From positions 18,407 to 82,406 of the IMG/VR virus record IMGVR_UViG_3300012269_000002: 64,000 nucleotides of DNA, one strand, 5' to 3'. The notes below the pieces were generated by a model. The model ran no database searches. It was not told the origin of the DNA and saw only the letters and a program-made list of their open reading frames with translations. The position numbers and the translations under genes are program-made. Within the stretch, counting starts at the first letter, position 1; each line of letters starts with the position of its first letter. This document shows positions 18,382-34,796 of the stretch, in pieces. Source of the DNA: a virus (lineage: Duplodnaviria > Heunggongvirae > Uroviricota > Caudoviricetes).

Positions 18382-18775
18382 AACAATTTTATTAGCATCC
18401 TTTATGGGTACTAAAGATATAGATATTTTTTTTAAAAAGCTTAAAGATAAATATAACATTCAGAAAACGAAAGTATTCGTATTTGAACATGTAGACGACC
18501 CCACTAAATTAATCGTAACATTTAAATTAGTAATTAAAAATAATATAAGGTTCAATATTAAGAAAGACCTACCAAACTCAATATTAATTCACAAAAGAGG
18601 TACGGCAATCTATACAATCAACGCCCTTAATAAATTAATAGAAAATACCCACCCAGAAACATTGGGAAACATTAATTATAGTTCGGTTAAAATAGATTGG
18701 TCCGAATTTCAAAATAAATTACTTACCTTTTATAATGATGAATTAAAGATATGTGATATAAAACGTATTTTTTAA
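18374..18775 (+). CDS. Hypothetical protein
   Basis: 133-aa ORF overlapping the upstream stop codon. Confidence 0.7.
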   Translation: MNRTILLASFMGTKDIDIFFKKLKDKYNIQKTKVFVFEHVDDPTKLIVTFKLVIKNNIRFNIKKDLPNSILIHKRGTAIYTINALNKLIENTHPETLGNINYSSVKIDWSEFQNKLLTFYNDELKICDIKRIF

Positions 18776-23841: not shown

Positions 23842-26286
23842 ATGAGTAAAATAGATAAAGATAAGTTAGGGTATTTAGGTATTGATTTCCAATATAGGTT
23901 ATTACAGCAAATTATAGTAGATAGAAAATTTGGTGAGTCGATTATAGATATAATGACACCAAATTACTTTGAAGATGCATTTTTAAGGAGTGTTGCTGGT
24001 AAAATAAAGGATAACTACGAAAAATACGAAACAATACCAGACATGAATAGTTTGGAATCTATATTATATGAAAATATAATTGATGAAGTTGACAAGGAAA
24101 TGTATATCAGTTCCCTTAAAAGAATCAAAGAGGCCGAACAGAACAATAGTCTTAGAACCCAAGACATTGCAATGAAATTTTGCAAACAACAAGAGTTAAA
24201 AAAATCTGTAAGAGAAATGCAGTTGATAATTGAAAAGGGTGACTTGGACGATTATCATTTATGTGAAGAACTTCTTAAGAAAGCCTTAGAGGTCGGACAT
24301 AGTAAAGATGATGGTATAGATGTATTCTATGATATCGAAAGTGTATTATCCGAAGATTTCAGGGACCCAATACCAACGGGTATCGATGGATTGGATACTT
24401 ACATGGATGGTGGATTGGCTAAAGGTGAATTAGCGGTGATTTTAGCCCCTACTGGGGTTGGTAAAGCTCAACCTCTTACATCTAAAATATTAACACCTAA
24501 CGGTTGGACAACTATGGGAAAAATACAAGTTAATGATTTTGTTATTGGTGATGATGGTAAAAAGACTAAAGTTATTGGTGTGTTTCCACAAGGTAAACGA
24601 CCTATATATGAAATTAAATTTAACGATGGTACATCTACATTATGTGATGAAGAACATTTATGGTCTGTAAATACAATAAACCAACGTAATCGTAAAACTA
24701 AAAAAAATGGTAAAGTAGTTTATCTACCAAGTGATGATAGTTTTAAAACGATTAAAACTAAAGACATGTTAGATGATATTAAAAAATGGGGTGGTAAAAA
24801 TAATTATAAAATACCCATAGTTAAACCAGTTCAATTTGAAAATAATACTAAATTACCTATCGACCCATATGTAATGGGATTAATATTAGGTGATGGATGC
24901 ATTACGGATTCAAATCAACCTAGAATAACAACTAAAGATGAATTTATTGTTAATGAAGTTAAGAGTAGGTATAATGATGTTAATATTTATTCTAGAGAAC
25001 GTTATATTGAAGAAAATAGTACCAATAAAATTATGTTAAATAAAAGGAGTATTCTTGAAATATCATTATTAGGTGCTAAATCTAAATTAAGTGATTTAAA
25101 ATTATATGGTTGTAATAGTGAATCTAAATTTATACCTAACTTATATTTGTTTAATACTATAGAAAATAGGTTATCTTTGTTACAAGGTTTAATTGATAGT
25201 GATGGTTACATTAATTCACATAGAATAGAATATGTGACTGTTTCAGAATCGCTATGTAATGGAATGATTGAGTTAATTCGTTCATTAGGTGGTAAAGTTA
25301 GTTTTAAAACGAAAATAGGTTCATATAAAAATAAATTAGGTGAAATTATTAACTGTAAAAAATATTATAGATTATCTATGAGTTTACCCAATAATGGTAT
25401 TATACCTTCCTTATTACCTCGTAAACGTAATAAATTTATAAATAGGGAAAAATATTCTAGTAATAAATTTATTACCTCAATTGAATATCACGGACATTTA
25501 GAGGCACAATGTATTATGGTAGATAATATTAATCATTTATATGTGACAGATGATTATATTGTAACTCATAATACCACATTGAGCACTAAGTTAGCAAACC
25601 ACGCTAAAAACATAGGTAAAAACGTTCTACAGATATTCTTTGAGGATAACCCAAAGATAATTCAGAAGAAACATTTAACATGTTGGATGGAAGGTAAATA
25701 CACATTAAACGAGCTAAGTGAAAATAAAGAAGAAATATTTGCTGTTGCCGAGGAAATGCAAAGTAGACCTGGAACTATTAGATTAAAAAAATTTCCTAGT
25801 GATAGTACTACAATTCCGATAATTAAACAGTATATTAAAAAATTGATGTCACAAGGATTTAAACCTGATTTAGTTATATTGGATTATATTGACTGTGTAC
25901 AATCAAGTAAACAATATAAGGAAAGTTGGGATGCGGAAGGTAATGTAATGCGACAATTTGAAACGATGTTATCAGAACTTGATATGGCTGGTTGGACCGC
26001 TGTTCAAGGTAACCGTTGTGTTTCTATTGATACTCATGTAGTTACTAAGAAAAATGGTAATATAAAAATAAAAGATATTGTTGAAGGTGATGAAATATTA
26101 ACACATAAAGGTTATAAGAAGGTAACACATGTATTTCCTATTGAAAAGCAACCGATATATAAAATAAAATTAAAATCTGGTAAAACTATAAATGTATCTA
26201 AAAAACATAAGTTTCCAACTAGTGATGGAAAACTTTTATCAATACAAGATGGTTTAAAAGTGGGTGATAAATTATTAACTAAATAA
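23842..26286 (+). CDS. dnaB: DnaB/gp41-like replicative helicase, N-terminal fragment (contains a cis intein and ends in a split-intein N-half)
   Basis: IPTGIDGLD...GGLAKGELAVILAPTGVGK Walker A interrupted by an intein; ILDYIDC Walker B; ends AVQGNR|CVSIDT...KLLTK*. Confidence 0.9.
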   Translation: MSKIDKDKLGYLGIDFQYRLLQQIIVDRKFGESIIDIMTPNYFEDAFLRSVAGKIKDNYEKYETIPDMNSLESILYENIIDEVDKEMYISSLKRIKEAEQNNSLRTQDIAMKFCKQQELKKSVREMQLIIEKGDLDDYHLCEELLKKALEVGHSKDDGIDVFYDIESVLSEDFRDPIPTGIDGLDTYMDGGLAKGELAVILAPTGVGKAQPLTSKILTPNGWTTMGKIQVNDFVIGDDGKKTKVIGVFPQGKRPIYEIKFNDGTSTLCDEEHLWSVNTINQRNRKTKKNGKVVYLPSDDSFKTIKTKDMLDDIKKWGGKNNYKIPIVKPVQFENNTKLPIDPYVMGLILGDGCITDSNQPRITTKDEFIVNEVKSRYNDVNIYSRERYIEENSTNKIMLNKRSILEISLLGAKSKLSDLKLYGCNSESKFIPNLYLFNTIENRLSLLQGLIDSDGYINSHRIEYVTVSESLCNGMIELIRSLGGKVSFKTKIGSYKNKLGEIINCKKYYRLSMSLPNNGIIPSLLPRKRNKFINREKYSSNKFITSIEYHGHLEAQCIMVDNINHLYVTDDYIVTHNTTLSTKLANHAKNIGKNVLQIFFEDNPKIIQKKHLTCWMEGKYTLNELSENKEEIFAVAEEMQSRPGTIRLKKFPSDSTTIPIIKQYIKKLMSQGFKPDLVILDYIDCVQSSKQYKESWDAEGNVMRQFETMLSELDMAGWTAVQGNRCVSIDTHVVTKKNGNIKIKDIVEGDEILTHKGYKKVTHVFPIEKQPIYKIKLKSGKTINVSKKHKFPTSDGKLLSIQDGLKVGDKLLTK
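24466..25572 (+). mobile_element. Cis intein (369 aa) in helicase Walker A; Ala1, class-3-type, with LAGLIDADG endonuclease
   Basis: GVGK|AQPL...DEEHLW...MGLILGDG...LLQGLIDSDG...AQCIMV...IVTHN|TT. Confidence 0.9.
26017..26283 (+). mobile_element. Split intein N-half (89 aa) of helicase
   Basis: C1 start CVSIDTHV, block B VSKKHKF, then a stop codon with no C-terminal block. Confidence 0.88.
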
Positions 26287-26333
26287 CTTTTTTGTACTGC
26301 GGTTAACTTTTTAATAAATTATAACTATTTATA

Positions 26334-27476
26334 ATGAAATATATTATGAAAAAGTTAACTGCAAAATATATTATTAATAGGAAAATGTTTAATAATATTG
26401 AAGAAAATACGATTACTGAAAGACATTTAAATGAAATTGATAAAATTTTAAAAAAATATGATAATAAAACTATAAAAAATAGGTTAAAAAATATTCATGA
26501 TTTTATAAAATATAATGTTGATGGGTGTTGGTTAGAAAGGATAAATATTATTAGAACTGTTTTAAAAAATGATGTAACATCTGATTATGCTTTAGAAATA
26601 AGATATGGAAAAAAAAATGTAGAAAAAAAGAAAAAAGATTTTTCAAGTAAATTTGGACATAGTTTAGAAAAATATAAAAAAAAATATGGTGAGTTGTTAG
26701 GTAAAATAAAATGGGAAGAATATTTAAAAAAATCAAAAACACCTTGGGGTTTAGATGCATGTATTGAAAAATTTGGTAAAATAAAAGGTCCTAAAAAATG
26801 GGATGAAAGACTAAGTAGAAAAAATAAAACTATGTCTGAGCGAAAATTAATAAAACCATATAGAAATGGTAGAACTTTAAAAGAATATCAAAATAGGTAT
26901 GGAATTGAAGAAGGTTTTATTAAATGGGATAAAAGAAATAAAAAACAAAGTTATAGATTTAGTAAAAAATATTATATAAATACTTTTGGTGAAAAGGTTG
27001 GTAATGAAAAATGGAATGAATATCGTAAAAGAATGAATTTAACTTCATTAGATAGTTTCATAAAACGTTACGGTAAAAAGAAAGGTATTGAAAAGTTTAA
27101 CACTTACATAAGTAAATGTTTTAAAAGTGGTTCTTTTTATAGTAAAATTTCACAAGAATTATTTTTTGAAATTTATAATAAATTAACTGAAAATATAAAA
27201 AAGGGTGTTAGATTTGCTAAATTGAATGGTGAGGAAGTATTTCACGTTAATCAAGATGATTTAAAAATAATAATGGTTGATTTTAAATGTGGTAATAGAA
27301 TAATAGAGTTTGATGGTGATTATTGGCATGATAATACTAAACAAAAAATAATTGATAAAAAACGAGATGAGTATTTAAAAAGTAAAGGTTATAATATTAT
27401 GAGAATATGGGAATCAGAGTATTTGAAAAATAAAAATAAAATAATAAATAAATGTTTAAAATTTATAAATGAATAG
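26334..27476 (+). CDS. Free-standing Vsr-like PD-(D/E)XK endonuclease inside the split intein
   Basis: Lys-rich K.YG...G..KW..Y repeats, then VDFKCGNRIIEFDGDYWH...DKKRDEYL...GYNIMRIWESEY. Its stop overlaps the start of the IntC gene. Confidence 0.8.
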   Translation: MKYIMKKLTAKYIINRKMFNNIEENTITERHLNEIDKILKKYDNKTIKNRLKNIHDFIKYNVDGCWLERINIIRTVLKNDVTSDYALEIRYGKKNVEKKKKDFSSKFGHSLEKYKKKYGELLGKIKWEEYLKKSKTPWGLDACIEKFGKIKGPKKWDERLSRKNKTMSERKLIKPYRNGRTLKEYQNRYGIEEGFIKWDKRNKKQSYRFSKKYYINTFGEKVGNEKWNEYRKRMNLTSLDSFIKRYGKKKGIEKFNTYISKCFKSGSFYSKISQELFFEIYNKLTENIKKGVRFAKLNGEEVFHVNQDDLKIIMVDFKCGNRIIEFDGDYWHDNTKQKIIDKKRDEYLKSKGYNIMRIWESEYLKNKNKIINKCLKFINE

Positions 27477-27957
27477 TGATATGAATAAATATGATATTAG
27501 TATGGATGATTTTTCATTAGATGAAATAGAATCCATAGAATTAATGGGCGAAGAAGATACAATAGATATAACAGTAGAAGATACACATATGTTTTATGCT
27601 AATGATATTTACACACATAATTCATCACTTACGGCAGAAACGGTCGATTCAAGTATGTTCGGGGGGTCTATTAAAAAAGCACAAATAGGTCACTTCATCA
27701 TTTCAATAGCAAAAACATTGGACCAAAAAGAACACGGAACCGCAAATATGGCGATACTTAAATCTAGATTTGGTCAAGACGGGATAATATTTGAGGATAT
27801 TATTTTCGATAATGGTAGAATACAGATAAGTATTAATAAGGGGCAAGAGGATGGTCATAGCTTTTTACAAAGTAAACAAAATAGAGCCGTAAAGGACCAG
27901 AATAGAGTTAGTAATATTATGGCCGCCATACAAGAGAGAAAAGAATTAGAAGGATAA
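27469..27957 (+). CDS. dnaB: Helicase C-terminal fragment preceded by split intein C-half (IntC 27469-27621, 51 aa)
   Basis: ...TIDITVEDTHMFYANDIYTHN|SSL...GGSIKKAQIGHFIISIAK...ILKSRFG (helicase motif H4). Confidence 0.9.
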   Translation: MNSDMNKYDISMDDFSLDEIESIELMGEEDTIDITVEDTHMFYANDIYTHNSSLTAETVDSSMFGGSIKKAQIGHFIISIAKTLDQKEHGTANMAILKSRFGQDGIIFEDIIFDNGRIQISINKGQEDGHSFLQSKQNRAVKDQNRVSNIMAAIQERKELEG

Positions 27958-28982: not shown

Positions 28983-31415
28983 ATGAAAGTAATAAAAAGA
29001 GATGGTTCATCGGAGCCAATTAAATTCGATAAGATATCGGCAAGAATTAAGAAACAAACTTACGGTTTGAATACGGATTATGTTGATTACATGGAAGTTA
29101 CTCAGAAAGTTATTGCTGGAATTTTTGATGGTATTACAACAAAAGAATTAGATAACCTAGCCGCAGAAATTGCGGCTTCGTTAACTAGGGTACATTATGA
29201 TTATTCTAAACTTGCCTCTAGGATTTCTATTTCTTCATTAAAGAAGTATACTAAAAAAAGTTTCACGGAAACCATTGAGGACCTTTACCATTATGTAAAC
29301 CCAATAACTGGCGAACAAGCTGGTCTTATTGCGGACAACGTATATAATATCGTTCGTGAAAACTCCAAAAAACTTGAACAAATGATTGTTCATGACAGAG
29401 ATTTCGACTATGACTTCTTCGGTTTTAAAACACTTGAAAGAGCATACTTATTAAAAATTAATAATGAAATAGCCGAAACTCCACAACATATGTGTTTAAG
29501 AGTTTCATTGGGGATTTGGGGAGATAACCTTAAAGAGGTTCAAAAGACATATGATTCCTTAAGTAAAGGTTTATTCACACACGCAACACCTACGCTTTTT
29601 AATTCTGGAACTAAAAAGCCACAGTTGTCAAGTTGTTTTGTTGCTGGTACAAGTGTATTTACAACAAGTGGTGTTAAAAATATTGAAGATGTTGAAATTG
29701 GTGATAAAGTAGTTACTCACAAGGGTAACGTTAAGGAGGTTCAACAACTACATAAAAATAAATTAAATGATAGACAATTGTATGACCTTAAAACTTATGG
29801 TAGTCCAAATATGACTGTAACTGGTAATCATAGAATTTTATCATTATCAAAAGAACAAGATAAGTGGGGTAAAACACCAAAATGGAACTCGGTTGAATAC
29901 CTAAGGGTCGGGGATTATGTGGCCATACCAAACAAAATTGGTAAATATGCACCAGAAAAGGTTGAATTAATAGATTATGTACCAAATAATTATGGTAATA
30001 TAGAATTAGAAAGTGAAATCATTGGAGATAAACTAAAAGTAAAATCAAAATGGTTGCGAAGACACAAATTAAATAATAATGGTGGTAATATTATAGTCAC
30101 TAGAAAACATAATGAGATAAATAAATCAATCATAATTGATGAAGATTTTGCATTTTTATTAGGTGTTTGGATTGGTGATGGAAATATATTAACTGGTAAA
30201 GATTATAGTAAAACTTTAACTGTTAATAGGGGTATTAGATTTACAAATAATAAGGATGCCTATGGTTTAATTGATAGGTTAGATAAATTAATAACTAAAA
30301 TATTCGGTATTGATGGTAATATTTCAAAACCAACAAAAACCAATACAATAACTATTGATGTACATTCACATGTTATATCTAATTATTTTTATAAAAACTT
30401 TGGTAAGGGTTTTAATGGTAAAAAAATACCCGATTTCATGTATAATTGGGATAAACTTATGATTTCAAAATTTTTAGAAGGTTTAATAACTTCTGATGGT
30501 TGTGTGACTAAAAGTGGTGATATTAGGATTACTATGGCAAATATTGACTTAATCAAATCAATATTTGCTTTATCCAGAAACTGTGGTATACCATTATCAT
30601 ACTCCGAGGCAACATCATTAAAATTAGGTGGGACTAAATTAACCGCTAGGATATCTTTACCTAAGGGTTCAATAGATTTATCCAATATCTATAAACTATA
30701 TAATGACGAAAGGTTAAGTGAGTATTTTAATAAGTCAAATAAAAATTCCAATATTAAAATAATAAATGGTACAACTTTTATTATAATAAATAAAAAAAGT
30801 GAAAATATTAGTAAACCAGAATTTGTATATACGCTAGGTGTTCAGGATGACCATTCATATGTTGTTGAAGGTAATGTAGTTGAAAATTGTTTCCTATTGG
30901 GTATGGCAGATGATTCAATCAAGGGCATATATGAGTCTTTAAGCGATTGTGCCGACATTTCTCAGTCCGCTGGTGGTATCGGTATCCACATTCATAATGT
31001 TCGTGCCAAGGGCACTTATATAAAGGGTACAAATGGAACCTCTAATGGTATTGTACCTATGTTGAGGGTTTATAATGAAACAGCTAGATATGTAGACCAA
31101 TGTTTTACCGAAGAAACATTAATCAATACCGATAAAGGGTTAATTAAAATTAAAGATATTTCTGAAGGGGATAAAGTTAAAACGTCAAATGGTTTTAATA
31201 AAGTTAAAAAAGTTAAAAAATTTAATAAAGAAAAAAGAGAATTAATAAACGTTAATGGTAAAACTAAATCAACAGTAAGTCACCCTTATTTAGTAGTTGA
31301 AGATTCAACTGGTAGAGATTTAGAAATCATTAAATTATCAATTAAATCTGGAACATTAATACCTAAATGGGTTGAAGCTAAAGATTTAAATAAAAATATG
31401 TTTATATTAAAATAA
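28983..31415 (+). CDS. nrdA: Ribonucleotide reductase alpha subunit, fragment 1 (ATP-cone; contains a cis intein; ends in split-intein N-half)
   Basis: MKVIKRDG ATP-cone, ATPTLFNSGT..PQLSS|C, SAGGIG, TARYVDQ|CFTEET...*. Confidence 0.93.
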   Translation: MKVIKRDGSSEPIKFDKISARIKKQTYGLNTDYVDYMEVTQKVIAGIFDGITTKELDNLAAEIAASLTRVHYDYSKLASRISISSLKKYTKKSFTETIEDLYHYVNPITGEQAGLIADNVYNIVRENSKKLEQMIVHDRDFDYDFFGFKTLERAYLLKINNEIAETPQHMCLRVSLGIWGDNLKEVQKTYDSLSKGLFTHATPTLFNSGTKKPQLSSCFVAGTSVFTTSGVKNIEDVEIGDKVVTHKGNVKEVQQLHKNKLNDRQLYDLKTYGSPNMTVTGNHRILSLSKEQDKWGKTPKWNSVEYLRVGDYVAIPNKIGKYAPEKVELIDYVPNNYGNIELESEIIGDKLKVKSKWLRRHKLNNNGGNIIVTRKHNEINKSIIIDEDFAFLLGVWIGDGNILTGKDYSKTLTVNRGIRFTNNKDAYGLIDRLDKLITKIFGIDGNISKPTKTNTITIDVHSHVISNYFYKNFGKGFNGKKIPDFMYNWDKLMISKFLEGLITSDGCVTKSGDIRITMANIDLIKSIFALSRNCGIPLSYSEATSLKLGGTKLTARISLPKGSIDLSNIYKLYNDERLSEYFNKSNKNSNIKIINGTTFIIINKKSENISKPEFVYTLGVQDDHSYVVEGNVVENCFLLGMADDSIKGIYESLSDCADISQSAGGIGIHIHNVRAKGTYIKGTNGTSNGIVPMLRVYNETARYVDQCFTEETLINTDKGLIKIKDISEGDKVKTSNGFNKVKKVKKFNKEKRELINVNGKTKSTVSHPYLVVEDSTGRDLEIIKLSIKSGTLIPKWVEAKDLNKNMFILK
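29634..30887 (+). mobile_element. Cis intein (418 aa) with LAGLIDADG endonuclease; +1 residue is the Cys225-equivalent; penultimate Glu
   Basis: QLSS|CFVAGT...VTGNH...FLLGVWIGDG...FLEGLITSDG...YTLGVQDDHSYVVEGNVVEN|CFLL. Confidence 0.9.
31101..31412 (+). mobile_element. Split intein N-half (104 aa), nrdA split A
   Basis: CFTEETLINTDKGLIKIKDISEGDKV...STVSHPYL...WVEAKDL...*; strongly basic. Confidence 0.88.
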
Positions 31416-31456
31416 TAAACATGTAAGAACATGAATTTAATAAAATAAAATAAAAA

Positions 31457-31636
31457 ATGGCATACAAAGATAGTATTGAAAATTTTAATGAGCTAGGTTA
31501 TGACTTAGATAACATTAAATTAGAAAAAGTTAAATCAATAAGTACTTCAATAGAAGATTGTGAAGTATATGATTTAGAAATTGATGAGTTTCATAATTAT
31601 GAAACAGAAATGGGATTAGTTCATAATGGTGGTGGT
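31457..31636 (+). CDS. nrdA: nrdA fragment 2, exon 1: split intein C-half (57 aa, 31457-31627) + GGG
   Basis: ...EVYDLEIDEFHNYETEMGLVHN|GGG. This frame differs from that of fragment 1, 41 nt upstream. Confidence 0.85.
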
Positions 31637-31940
31637 AAACTTTTGCCTTCACGTTAAAAAAATTCAGTTAATTGCTGGAACTCCCTTAGAGTTTATAATA
31701 CTACAACGCAGATGGTAACGTCAAACGTGAATGTTTGAAAAATTATAAAATTGGGAAATCAGCAGCCAAGGTTCTTAGAAATAAGAATAAGGTTCAACGA
31801 CTAGGTTATGGAGTCTTAATATTAAGTTAAAGATAGTAAAAACCCACGAAAGCTGGACAATGTTAATTCATTGAAGATATAGTCTAGACTTATTAGAAAT
31901 AATAAGAGGTTGAGATAAAGAACTCAACGTTAATACAACG
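31637..31940 (+). ncRNA. Group I intron (304 nt, no ORF) in nrdA
   Basis: P AATTGCTGGAA 31670-80, Q AATCAGCAG 31757-65, R GTTCAACGACTA 31792-803, S AAGATATAGTCT 31874-85. P7 GACTA/TAGTC; P1 with U36.G45 wobble; terminal G. Splicing restores GGG-KRKGS. Confidence 0.93.
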
Positions 31941-32681
31941 AAAAGAAAGGGTAGTATTGCCGTATATTTAGAGCCATGGCATGCGGATGTACAGGATTTC
32001 ATTCAATTAAGAAAGAATCACGGAAAGGAAGAAATGAGAGCTAGAGATTTATTCTTAGCCTTATGGACCCCAGATTTATTTATGCAGAGGGTTGAATCCG
32101 ATGGTGATTGGACTTTAATGTGTCCACATGATTGTCCAGGTTTATCCGATGTTTATGATACTAAGGATAGTAAGGCTTTTACTGAATTATATGAAAGTTA
32201 TGAGGCTTCTGGTAAAGGAAAGAAAACCTTAAAAGCTAGAGAATTATATGCTGAAATTCTTGAGAGTCAAATTGAAACTGGGACACCTTACATATTATTC
32301 AAGGATGCTGCCAATAGTAAATCAAACCAACAAAATATAGGTACAATTAAGTCTTCAAACTTATGTCTAGTTGGTGAAACTAATATTAAAATTAGATTAA
32401 ATGGTATTGAGGGTGAAATAAGAATGGATTTATTAAATGAGTTATTTAAAACTAATGAAAATTTAGAGGTTTTAAGTCATAATATTAGAACAAAAGTTAA
32501 TGAGTGGAAATTAGTCACAAATTCAGCAATGACTAACCCTAAAACTAATGTTTTAAAAATAACTGACGAAAAAACTGGTAAATCAATTAAATGTACGCCA
32601 GAGCACGAAGTCTTTACTGAGAATAGAGGTTATATTATGGCTAAAGATTTAAAATCTGATGATGTTTTAGTAATTAATTAA
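31941..32681 (+). CDS. nrdA: nrdA fragment 2, exon 2 (ORF track starts it wrongly at 32034); ends in split-intein N-half
   Basis: [17 protein letters not shown]...[14 protein letters not shown]...IKSSNL|CLVGET...*. Confidence 0.9.
32364..32678 (+). mobile_element. Split intein N-half (105 aa), nrdA split B
   Basis: CLVGETNI...[22 protein letters not shown]. Confidence 0.9.
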
Positions 32682-32728
32682 AAATATTTTAGTAACTTCC
32701 ATAATTATAAGATATTTATTATTAAATT

Positions 32729-33493
32729 ATGGAAGTTATGAAAAATAATAAATATTATGTGTATGGTTATTTCGACCCTAGAAAAGGGGGTGAATATAAA
32801 TTTGGTAAATATGTGTTTGAATTTGAGCCAATATATATTGGTAAAGGTAAATGTGGTTCTAAACGAATGGAAAGGCATTTATTATTCATAAAAGATAGGA
32901 ATATTGATTTAACGAATAATAAATATAAATTAAACTTATTTAATCAGATAATGAGTGATGGTCTTGAACCCATTTTTTTTAAAATAGAAGATAAATTAAA
33001 TGAAGACATCGCTTATAGTATTGAAACGCTTTTAATTGATTTAATTGGATTTAGACACAATAATACTGGAACATTAACCAATATAAGTGTTGGTGGATTT
33101 GGTGGTGATATGTTTACAAATAACCCTAATAAAGAATATATTAGGTCATTAAGGGTTAAACAAATGAGTGGTGAAGGTAACCATAGGTTTGGTATTAAAT
33201 TAGAGGATACCCCATCACATAAAATGAGGGGTGAAAATCATTGGAATACTGGTCGAGAAATTTCAAGCTCAACTAGAAAATTGATGTCAAAAAATAATAG
33301 CGGTAAGAATAACCCCAATGCCACTAAAGTGTGTAAGTATGATTTGGATGGTAAATATATTTGTACATATAATACGATGAAAGAGGCATGTGTTGAAAAT
33401 AATGTTAATAAGGGTTGTTTGATTAGGGCGTGTAAATCAAATTTAAAATACACTGCTAAAGGTTTTAAGTGGGGTTATAATAATAATAATTAA
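32729..33493 (+). CDS. Free-standing GIY-YIG-like endonuclease (NUMOD3/NUMOD1-type repeats) inside split intein B
   Basis: YYVYGYFDPR...PIYIGKG...R...H, E..LI..IG...G.LTN; RKLMSKNNSGKNNP; KVCKYDLDGKYICTY. Confidence 0.8.
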   Translation: MEVMKNNKYYVYGYFDPRKGGEYKFGKYVFEFEPIYIGKGKCGSKRMERHLLFIKDRNIDLTNNKYKLNLFNQIMSDGLEPIFFKIEDKLNEDIAYSIETLLIDLIGFRHNNTGTLTNISVGGFGGDMFTNNPNKEYIRSLRVKQMSGEGNHRFGIKLEDTPSHKMRGENHWNTGREISSSTRKLMSKNNSGKNNPNATKVCKYDLDGKYICTYNTMKEACVENNVNKGCLIRACKSNLKYTAKGFKWGYNNNN

Positions 33494-33527
33494 ATCAATT
33501 AGTATATATAAAAATATAAAAAATAAA

Positions 33528-34796
33528 ATGATAAAAATAGAAGAATTAGAAGAGGAAGTTTCAGTTTATGATATCACTGTAGATGGTAATCATAATTTCT
33601 ACGCTAACGACATTTTAGTACATAATTGTACTGAAATAATGGAGGTTAGTACACCTGATGAAACAGCCGTATGTAACTTAGCTAGTGTCGCACTACCAAA
33701 GTTCGTTGAAATCCCAAGTGGTAAAGTTAAATCTAAAGATAAGGAATTAAGAACATTCGACCATGATGGGCTATATGATATAGCATATCAGATTACGGTT
33801 AACTTAAATCAAGTTATCGATATTAACTGGTATCCAACAGAAAAGGCTAAAAAGTCTAATTTTAGACATAGACCAATTGGTATCGGTGTTCAAGGTTTAG
33901 CTGATACATTTGCCATGTTAGGTTTACCGTTTGAATCAGATGAGGCTCAAAAATTAAATAAAGAAATTTTTGAAACGATTTATTTTGCATCTATGACAGC
34001 ATCTATGGATTTGGCTAAAATAAGTGGTTCTTATGAAACATTTGAAGGTTCACCAGTATCTAAGGGTATCTTCCAATTCGACATGTGGGAAATGGAAGAA
34101 GGTGAATTATCTGGAAGATGGGACTGGATTAAGTTGAAAAAAGCGGTAATTAAAAATGGTGTTAGAAATTCATTATTATTAGCACCGATGCCAACAGCAT
34201 CAACAGCTCAAATATTAGGTAATAATGAATGTTTTGAACCATATACCACCAACATATATAAGCGTAATGTTTTAGCTGGTGAATATATCATAGTGAATAA
34301 ACATTTAATAAGTGATTTAATCGACTTAGGGTTATGGGATGATAAACTTAGAATTGATTTAATCAAGAGTAATGGTTCTATTCAGAGTATTGATAGAATA
34401 CCACAGAACGTTAAAGATATTTATAGAACTGTTTGGGAAATGAAATCCTCAACACTACTTAAAATGTCAAGGGATAGAGGTTTATTCATTTGTCAATCTC
34501 AATCAATGAATTTATTCATAAGGGATGCAAATACGGCTAAATTATCAAAAGCTTTGATGTATGGTTGGAAATTGGGTCTTAAGACTGGTATGTATTACCT
34601 AAGAAGTAATTCTAGCGTTTCGGCCAAACAAAGTTTAGGTGCCGAAGTTCAACAAAGAGTAATCGAAGAGGTAAAACAAGAAGTGCCCGAAACTAAGTTA
34701 GTTGCACCCATTGTAAGCTCGATAGCCGAAGAAGAAGCACTTAAGGGTGTTACTTGTAGTTTGGATGACCCCGATTGTGAGGCATGTGGTAGTTAA
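33528..34796 (+). CDS. nrdA: nrdA fragment 3: split intein C-half (33 aa, to 33626) + C-terminal catalytic region
   Basis: MIKIEELEEEVSVYDITVDGNHNFYANDILVHN|CTEI..TAVCNLAS..RPIGIGVQG..APMPTAST..GLKTGMYY..CEACGS. Confidence 0.93.
   Translation: MIKIEELEEEVSVYDITVDGNHNFYANDILVHNCTEIMEVSTPDETAVCNLASVALPKFVEIPSGKVKSKDKELRTFDHDGLYDIAYQITVNLNQVIDINWYPTEKAKKSNFRHRPIGIGVQGLADTFAMLGLPFESDEAQKLNKEIFETIYFASMTASMDLAKISGSYETFEGSPVSKGIFQFDMWEMEEGELSGRWDWIKLKKAVIKNGVRNSLLLAPMPTASTAQILGNNECFEPYTTNIYKRNVLAGEYIIVNKHLISDLIDLGLWDDKLRIDLIKSNGSIQSIDRIPQNVKDIYRTVWEMKSSTLLKMSRDRGLFICQSQSMNLFIRDANTAKLSKALMYGWKLGLKTGMYYLRSNSSVSAKQSLGAEVQQRVIEEVKQEVPETKLVAPIVSSIAEEEALKGVTCSLDDPDCEACGS

Follow-up and report, generated by a model that had tools for sequence, protein, structure and literature searches.

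The nrdA gene of a lake-water phage, which encodes the large subunit of a class Ia ribonucleotide reductase (RNR), carries a naturally split intein within loop 2 of the enzyme, and the first residue after this intein is a glycine in place of the Cys, Ser or Thr on which protein splicing normally depends. By every relative examined, this Gly+1 is a trait of the whole loop-2 RNR intein family and no peculiarity of the lake phage. The gene occupies positions 28983-34796 (plus strand) of the stretch analysed here, the window, which comprises 64,000 nucleotides (positions 18,407 to 82,406) of the IMG/VR virus record IMGVR_UViG_3300012269_000002, a 161-kb virus from lake water with 31% G+C. We consider the chances about even that the intein joins its flanking sequences (exteins) by way of a Cys1 thioester, Asn cyclisation and attack by the freed Gly amine, by analogy with the scheme proposed for certain bacterial intein-like domains.

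A preliminary description of this DNA had reported a split intein with the junctions YVDQ|CFTEET and GLVHN|GGG, and both are present when the open reading frames (ORFs) are re-read. ORF A (28983-31415) reads ...ETARYVDQ|CFTEET... and ends ...NMFILK, while ORF B, starting at 31457, reads MAYKD...GLVHN|GGG, the C-terminal half (IntC) thus opening with its own Met. The +1 codon at 31628-31630 is GGT, the first of the three GGT codons that span 31628-31636. The ORF coordinates also agree with the earlier account of the space between the halves, which are 41 nt apart (31416-31456) and in different frames: an ATG-TAA at 31421-31426 and a 5-codon ORF at 31431-31448 (MNLIK) are found there, along with a second TAA, and this short gap holds no endonuclease. 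The uninterrupted NrdA of Tenacibaculum phage pT24 reads ARYVDQGGGKRKGS at this site, which bears out the earlier argument that moving the boundaries cannot supply a Cys, Ser or Thr; in view of the pT24 motif YVDQGGGKRKGS, a boundary shift was rejected as impossible. One point of the description needs amending. The residues of the motif GGG(KRKGS) are as given, but in the DNA KRKGS does not follow GGG directly, as a 304-nt group I intron lies between them.

The catalytic residues of the intein are well preserved. Cys1 of block A, encoded at 31101-31103, is invariant in alignment A1 and in 117 of 117 parsed relatives, and the N-terminal half (IntN) further contains block B (T58-V-S-H61), of which T58 and H61 are invariant in alignment A1. 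IntC contributes block F, VYDLEIDEFHNY (VYDLE...HNY), and block G, GLVHN (His56-Asn57), with D39, H56 and N57 invariant in split forms (alignment A2). IntN scores above the Pfam cut-off for Hint_2 and just below that for Vint (26.9 bits, cut-off 27), and its profile matches the structure of the gp41-1 intein (6qaz). The Intein_splicing match of IntC is sub-threshold (26.9 bits, cut-off 35.8) and covers the end of the model (positions 116-155 of 155). Taken together, the element has the N-terminal Cys, the block B T-x-x-H, the C-terminal His-Asn, the HINT fold and the in-frame insertion at a conserved site that characterize class 1 inteins, with the exception of the first C-extein residue, which is Gly rather than Cys, Ser or Thr. 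Similarly, IntN and IntC are encoded on separate ORFs of one host gene, as in a fractured gene; the free-standing endonuclease gene that lies between the halves of such genes is lacking in the window, and is found in the related loci L003, L005 and L015.

Two checks laid out in the preliminary description, one for a Cys, Ser or Thr codon at 31628-31630 and one for other NrdA sequences with HN|GGG, both came out in favor of Gly+1. Contigs from two lake-metagenome runs that carry no flag as the source sample, X5 and X6, have the same GGT and show 0 differences over 31000-31951 and 31526-31683. These identical contigs, together with conservation in relatives, rule out a sequencing error. Three more IntC proteins of the split type, with 54-72% identity, end in AHN|GGGR, their loci (L003-L009) carrying the same intron, and 15 viral contigs with intron-free split forms (L012-L026) read VHN|GGGRRKGS in one open frame. 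Contiguous viral forms were found at the ARYVDQ|CFTPDT site of approximately 24 loci, many of them in giant-virus metagenome-assembled genomes; these inteins measure 148 aa, or approximately 355 aa with a LAGLIDADG domain, and end in HN|GGG[KR]R in 21 of the 21 cases with a readable C-junction. A protein search of a 5.8-billion-cluster collection returned 1695 matching clusters, of which the best 120 were examined; 117 of these could be parsed, and all 117, giant-virus-type NrdA proteins, have YVDQ|CF...HN|GGG. Bacterial loci carry the contiguous form, again with HN|GGG throughout (26 of 26), in Saprospiraceae, Cytophagales, Chitinophagales, Hymenobacter, Neolewinella, Candidatus Marithrix and Actinomycetota.

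No Cys, Ser or Thr was found at +1 among the split relatives, the contiguous viral forms, the 117 parsed proteins or the 26 bacterial loci, nor a conserved one within the ten residues downstream, where many bacterial C-exteins read GGGKRKGAFA. The family is large, its members being split in phages and contiguous in bacteria and giant-virus-type contigs, and its invariant Gly+1 strengthens the earlier proposal that processing must be non-canonical. A search of the open-access literature, which leaves subscription journals uncovered, for inteins with Gly or another non-nucleophilic residue at +1 and for HN|GGG motifs gave no description of a loop-2 RNR family; absence from that literature is no proof of novelty.

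Several observations suggest that the loop-2 intein is functional. The ratio of nonsynonymous to synonymous substitution rates (dN/dS) across the intein is 0.25-0.35, compared with about 0.02 in the adjacent extein, values that indicate purifying selection on the intein sequence. In two complete bacterial chromosomes (L056 and L080), which contain no NrdD, the intein-bearing nrdA is the only gene with the RNR catalytic domain PF02867, and this allele must therefore yield an active enzyme. No second RNR was found in the phage record, for which CheckV estimates 46% completeness. Extein 2 (query residues 1-71) aligns to residues 218-288 of the yeast Rnr1 chain (PDB 1zyz and 3s8a; E 7e-30), which places the intein between Q288 and G289, inside loop 2. 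Through this loop the effector site communicates substrate specificity to the catalytic site, and in yeast, changing a single residue of it upsets the balance of the dNTP pools (PMC2896522); a nick at this point would probably be costly. Finally, structure prediction has IntN and IntC associating, with an ipSAE of 0.88 against 0.15 for the best control, at least 96% of contacts shared between runs and a partner pLDDT of at least 77. Of 80 solved complexes, 58 reached this ipSAE mark, as did 2 of 110 mismatched pairs, and the pass may reflect likeness to solved split-intein complexes. All in all, we take the loop-2 element to be a genuine, functional and naturally split intein.

The surrounding gene is unusually crowded, its coding sequence being split over four translation units and interrupted by five selfish elements: a LAGLIDADG intein, the loop-2 split intein, a group I intron, a second split intein and a GIY-YIG endonuclease. 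Removal of all five yields an NrdA of 821 aa that is colinear with the uninterrupted 809-aa protein of phage pT24. The features, all on the plus strand, are as follows.

28983..29633, +: nrdA extein 1 (ATP-cone and N-terminal part, ending ...PQLSS), aligned with pT24 NrdA
29634..30887, +: intein 1, contiguous, 418 aa, with LAGLIDADG endonuclease (Pfam LAGLIDADG_3, Intein_splicing, Hom_end)
30888..31100, +: nrdA extein 2 (CFLLGM...ARYVDQ), from alignment to yeast Rnr1 residues 218-288
31101..31412, +: loop-2 IntN, 104 aa (Pfam Hint_2 above cut-off), followed by a stop codon at 31413-31415
31416..31456, +: gap of 41 nt between the loop-2 intein halves, matching the 3' end of the L003 endonuclease gene
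31457..31627, +: loop-2 IntC, 57 aa (sub-threshold Pfam Intein_splicing match, alignment A2)
31628..31636, +: first three C-extein codons, GGT GGT GGT (Gly+1 to Gly+3), also the 5' strand of intron helix P1
31637..31940, +: group I intron, 304 nt, without an ORF (Rfam RF00028 Intron_gpI)
31941..32363, +: nrdA extein 3, 3' of the intron, ending ...SSNL
32364..32678, +: IntN of the third intein (the second split one), NL|CLVGETN, at the thiyl-radical site
32729..33493, +: free-standing GIY-YIG homing endonuclease between the halves of the third intein (Pfam LEM-3_GIY-YIG, NUMOD3)
33528..33626, +: IntC of the third intein, ...ILVHN|CTEI, with canonical Cys+1
33627..34796, +: nrdA extein 4 (CTEIMEV... 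to the stop codon)

Intein 1 reads CFVAGT...VVEN|CFLL, and its canonical Cys+1 corresponds to C218 of yeast Rnr1, the first active-site Cys. It is absent from the approximately 99% identical nrdA of L003 (compared at L003:1881-3053), a presence/absence polymorphism that points to recent mobility. The fractured NrdA genes of PMC2677866 are likewise interrupted at the thiyl-radical site occupied by the third intein.

The intron directly downstream of the three Gly codons matches Rfam family RF00028 with 71.5 bits (E 2e-18, gathering score 50) in a 391-nt scan (31600-31990), having been missed by an 8-kb scan at E <= 1. A blastn search located similar intron cores in about 150 phage records. The intron begins directly after the U that closes the third Gly codon, and its final base is a G, located before AAA AGA AAG, giving the junctions GGT|AAAC... 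and ...ACG|AAAAGA; the exon junction is fixed by the intron-less alleles of L012-L026. With a core that matches the family model, a U before the 5' splice site and a G at the 3' end, the element has the hallmarks of a group I intron. In helix P1, the Gly codons are base-paired to the internal guide sequence (GCCUUCAC in the window and GCUCCCAC in L003, whose exon reads GGT GGG GGT), and relatives use GGT GGG GGT or GGC GGG GGT, which are synonymous.

As an in-frame ...NTTKRKGS lies upstream of the 3' exon, an alternative splice site that would place a Thr after His-Asn was considered, and rejected on four lines of evidence. The base before ACA is a T instead of a G, the TT codons are missing in L005 and L006, the guide sequence pairs with GGN GGN GGT in P1, and alleles that lack the intron read straight through as HN|GGGRRKGS.

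Just 9 nt separate the ORF-less intron from the site of the loop-2 intein. The 2 elements occur together in four lineages (the window, L003, L005/L006 and L008/L009), and the intron is absent in L012-L026. Between the window and L003 the intron is nearly identical, unlike the intein cassette. Both elements would disrupt one short coding stretch of loop 2, which is possibly the target of a single endonuclease.

How could such an intein act? In all three classes of inteins, the second and fourth steps of splicing depend on a Cys, Ser or Thr at +1 (PMC4031507); with Gly+1, this canonical route is therefore impossible. For type A bacterial intein-like (BIL) domains, however, a different order has been proposed, in which thioester formation is followed by Asn cyclisation and then by attack of an amine (PMC4031507; PMC7664689). 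The only sequence match of the contiguous mini-intein in the PDB is to a BIL domain (2lwy, E 9e-6). In the most likely mechanism for the loop-2 intein, drawn by analogy, RNA splicing would come first, after which ORF B would be translated as IntC fused to extein 3 and the two intein halves would associate. Cys1 would undergo the usual N-S acyl shift to give a Gln-Cys thioester, and Asn57 would cyclise, helped by the unhindered Asn-Gly bond, to free the C-extein with its Gly alpha-amine. Held near the thioester by the intein and the already-folded RNR halves, this amine would then attack to form a native Gln-Gly peptide bond. Glycine offers the least hindered amine, and Asn-Gly is the Asn-X bond most prone to cyclisation in general peptide chemistry; the RNR halves, which fold together, could keep the amine in place.

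Several points weigh against ligation. After Asn cyclisation the C-extein is held by nothing covalent, so that joining it to the N-extein rests on proximity alone. Type A BIL domains mostly cleave, with splicing a minor outcome (PMC4031507; PMC7664689). The similarity to 2lwy is weak, and the profile of the split IntN fits the canonical gp41-1 intein better. In addition, the split RNR alpha subunit of phage Aeh1 works without an intein, as summarized in PMC2677866, and ligation may therefore not be required.

The main and serious rival to ligation is double self-cleavage, which we regard as possible though doubtful. Here, the Cys1 thioester would be hydrolyzed, Asn57 would cyclise and both halves would be shed, leaving RNR as a nicked, non-covalent assembly as in Aeh1, where according to the summary in PMC2677866 the NrdA-a and NrdA-b chains form an active enzyme. 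The mainly cleaved products of type A BIL domains favor this outcome, and since cleavage needs the same Cys1 and His-Asn as splicing, the conservation of these residues fits both equally well. Less easily reconciled with it is the location of the nick (Q288/G289) inside a loop that is sensitive even to point substitutions. Moreover, fragments that assemble by themselves would make the intein dispensable, yet it has been kept under purifying selection after loss of the endonuclease in several lineages.

All outcomes other than ligation or cleavage alone are unlikely, even when pooled. The preliminary description had also suggested that the intein might act as a non-covalent clamp holding together an unligated RNR. 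In a version without chemistry, its halves would only associate and stay attached, leaving the RNR unprocessed. The predicted binding of the halves (0.88 against 0.15, which may stem from likeness to solved split inteins) agrees with this, but a clamp would not need the catalytic residues, and purifying selection has conserved all of them throughout the family: Cys1, TxxH, the block F Asp and the terminal His-Asn. Activity as a sole RNR is also hard to square with a domain of 160-360 aa left in loop 2, between the specificity site and the catalytic site, and we consider the clamp very improbable. Just as little probability attaches to ligation through a hidden nucleophile, whether a distant extein Ser, Thr or Cys acting through a branched intermediate or a separate transpeptidase. 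The lake phage and giant-virus-type hosts do have a Ser at +8 (KRKGS or KRNGS), but this position is Ala in most bacterial hosts (GGGKRKGAFA), on which ground Ser+8 was rejected as a remote nucleophile, and one dedicated helper common to bacteria, phages and giant viruses is implausible. Least probable of all is a decaying or non-functional gene, or an artefact of sequencing or boundaries. Although four translation units and five selfish elements might give an impression of decay, all frames are intact, the contigs from runs not flagged as the source are identical, and dN/dS stays below 1 in the intein, with a value of about 0.02 in the extein. Gly+1 also recurs in intron-free open frames and in the sole RNR of complete bacterial chromosomes.

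The absence of an endonuclease from the loop-2 intein is a secondary loss: in relatives a nuclease gene separates the halves, and the tail of one such gene survives in the gap of the window. In L003 and L005, this gene (L003:3103-4011 and L005:3075-3995) encodes a DUF723 zinc-finger nuclease of 302-306 aa and overlaps or abuts the start of IntC. The window gap, from GAATTTAA to the ATG of IntC, matches the 3' end of the L003 gene, itself overlapping the IntC start, and is by this match the remnant of a deleted DUF723 homing-endonuclease gene. The L015 lineage has a different nuclease at the same place, the 296-aa DUF7487 (PD-(D/E)XK-like), whose gene likewise overlaps or abuts the start of IntC. 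In its sister lineage (L022-L026, sister to L015-L021), the DUF7487 gene is gone and a stop codon plus 9 nt separate the halves (e.g., L022:2093-2626). As these alleles read, the endonuclease was lost twice independently and the split intein was kept. Across the family, LAGLIDADG endonucleases accompany contiguous forms, and DUF723 or DUF7487 nucleases the split forms. The halves of L022-L026 are in the same frame, so that a change of one stop codon would re-fuse the intein.

Comparison of the window with L003 further indicates that the cassette has a history of its own. Between the two, the intein cassette has a dS of 0.98, a dN of 0.34 and 56% amino-acid identity, against a dS of 0.34, a dN of 0.006 and about 99% identity in the flanking extein. 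The far greater divergence of the cassette implies exchange by recombination or homing, apparently without the DNA around it.

In the DUF723 endonuclease, a Cys-rich zinc-finger module occurs in three repeats ahead of a C-terminal ...VDGID...YEFYGD[FY]FHGN... motif, which resembles the Vsr-like nuclease of the helicase locus in the same window (...IIEFDGDYWHDN...). That locus, a gp41/DnaB-like replicative helicase gene (23842-27957), has likewise been invaded twice. Its first element is a contiguous intein with a LAGLIDADG-like middle part, which starts with Ala after the P-loop (GVGK|AQPL...) and shows, with a block B Trp (EHLW), a block F Cys (AQCIMV) and the end THN|T, the W-C-T signature of class 3. 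The second element is split (NR|CVSIDT... and ...IYTHN|SSL), and between the halves of this intein lies a DUF559/Vsr-like endonuclease gene (26334-27476) that overlaps the start of IntC by 8 nt.

In its architecture, the loop-2 intein most resembles the fractured genes of Dassa et al. (2009, PMC2677866), such as gp41-1, NrdA-2, NrdJ-1 and IMPDH-1. It shares with these a host gene in two ORFs, an IntN that ends in a stop codon, an IntC with its own Met and a setting in phages and freshwater metagenomes, and the relatives L003, L005 and L015 share the endonuclease gene between the halves as well; the third nrdA intein of the window is a textbook example. However, all seven NrdA loci of that study are reported to be at the thiyl-radical site, whereas the loop-2 intein interrupts Q|GGG, has Gly rather than Cys or Ser at +1 and has had its endonuclease gene deleted in the window. 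Blocks A, B, F and G, with Cys1, TxxH, the block F Asp and His-Asn, are shared with canonical class 1 inteins, as are the conserved site in a replication-related enzyme and the existence of mini, endonuclease-bearing and split forms. Unlike those, the loop-2 intein lacks the +1 Cys, Ser or Thr, so that no branched intermediate is possible.

At its junctions, the intein is closer to type A BIL domains, for example, BIL4 of Clostridium thermocellum (PDB 2lwy), with which it has in common the HINT fold, Cys1, a C-terminal His-Asn and the lack of a following Cys, Ser or Thr. To our knowledge, BIL domains do not occur at conserved sites of housekeeping enzymes or with homing endonucleases. The loop-2 intein departs from the variable-protein, endonuclease-free context of type A BIL domains: it sits in a critical RNR loop, is accompanied by LAGLIDADG, DUF723 or DUF7487 endonucleases, and shows the presence/absence polymorphism of a mobile intein.

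Two other phage systems are comparable at the level of the gene. The NrdA of Aeromonas phage Aeh1 (Friedrich et al. 2007, as cited in PMC2677866) is also a class Ia alpha subunit in separate genes, broken by insertion of a homing endonuclease and still active. In that account its chains have no intein halves and simply associate, whereas the break in the lake phage is flanked by conserved halves. RNR genes of Bacillus prophages (Lazarevic 2001, as cited in PMC4760082) are likewise a refuge for group I introns and inteins, and by blastn the intron of the lake phage resembles those of Bacillus, Staphylococcus and Lactococcus phages. As far as that citation describes them, the lake phage differs in having the intron 9 nt from the intein site, a split intein and no +1 nucleophile. 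From its sequence, then, the loop-2 intein combines a fractured-gene architecture with BIL-like junctions, and adds a different NrdA site, Gly+1 and the loss of the endonuclease.

Loop-2 RNR inteins thus form a large, conserved and mobile family that breaks the rule of a +1 Cys, Ser or Thr, and they do so in an enzyme that is the sole RNR of some bacterial hosts. If they ligate, the chemistry of natural inteins would widen and inteins could colonize sites without a nucleophile; ligation without a +1 side-chain nucleophile would then amount to a fourth mechanistic class of natural inteins, a prospect we rate no higher and no lower than an even chance. The compact, endonuclease-free pair of the lake phage (104 + 57 aa) would in that case join onto glycine without a Cys, Ser or Thr scar, providing protein engineers with a small natural tool for scarless joining at this residue. 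If they only cleave, RNR would be an enzyme that tolerates a lasting nick in the loop that governs its specificity, a result of interest to RNR enzymologists. In either case, the locus illustrates the homing cycle, in which the endonuclease was lost on two independent occasions and the split intein stayed in place.

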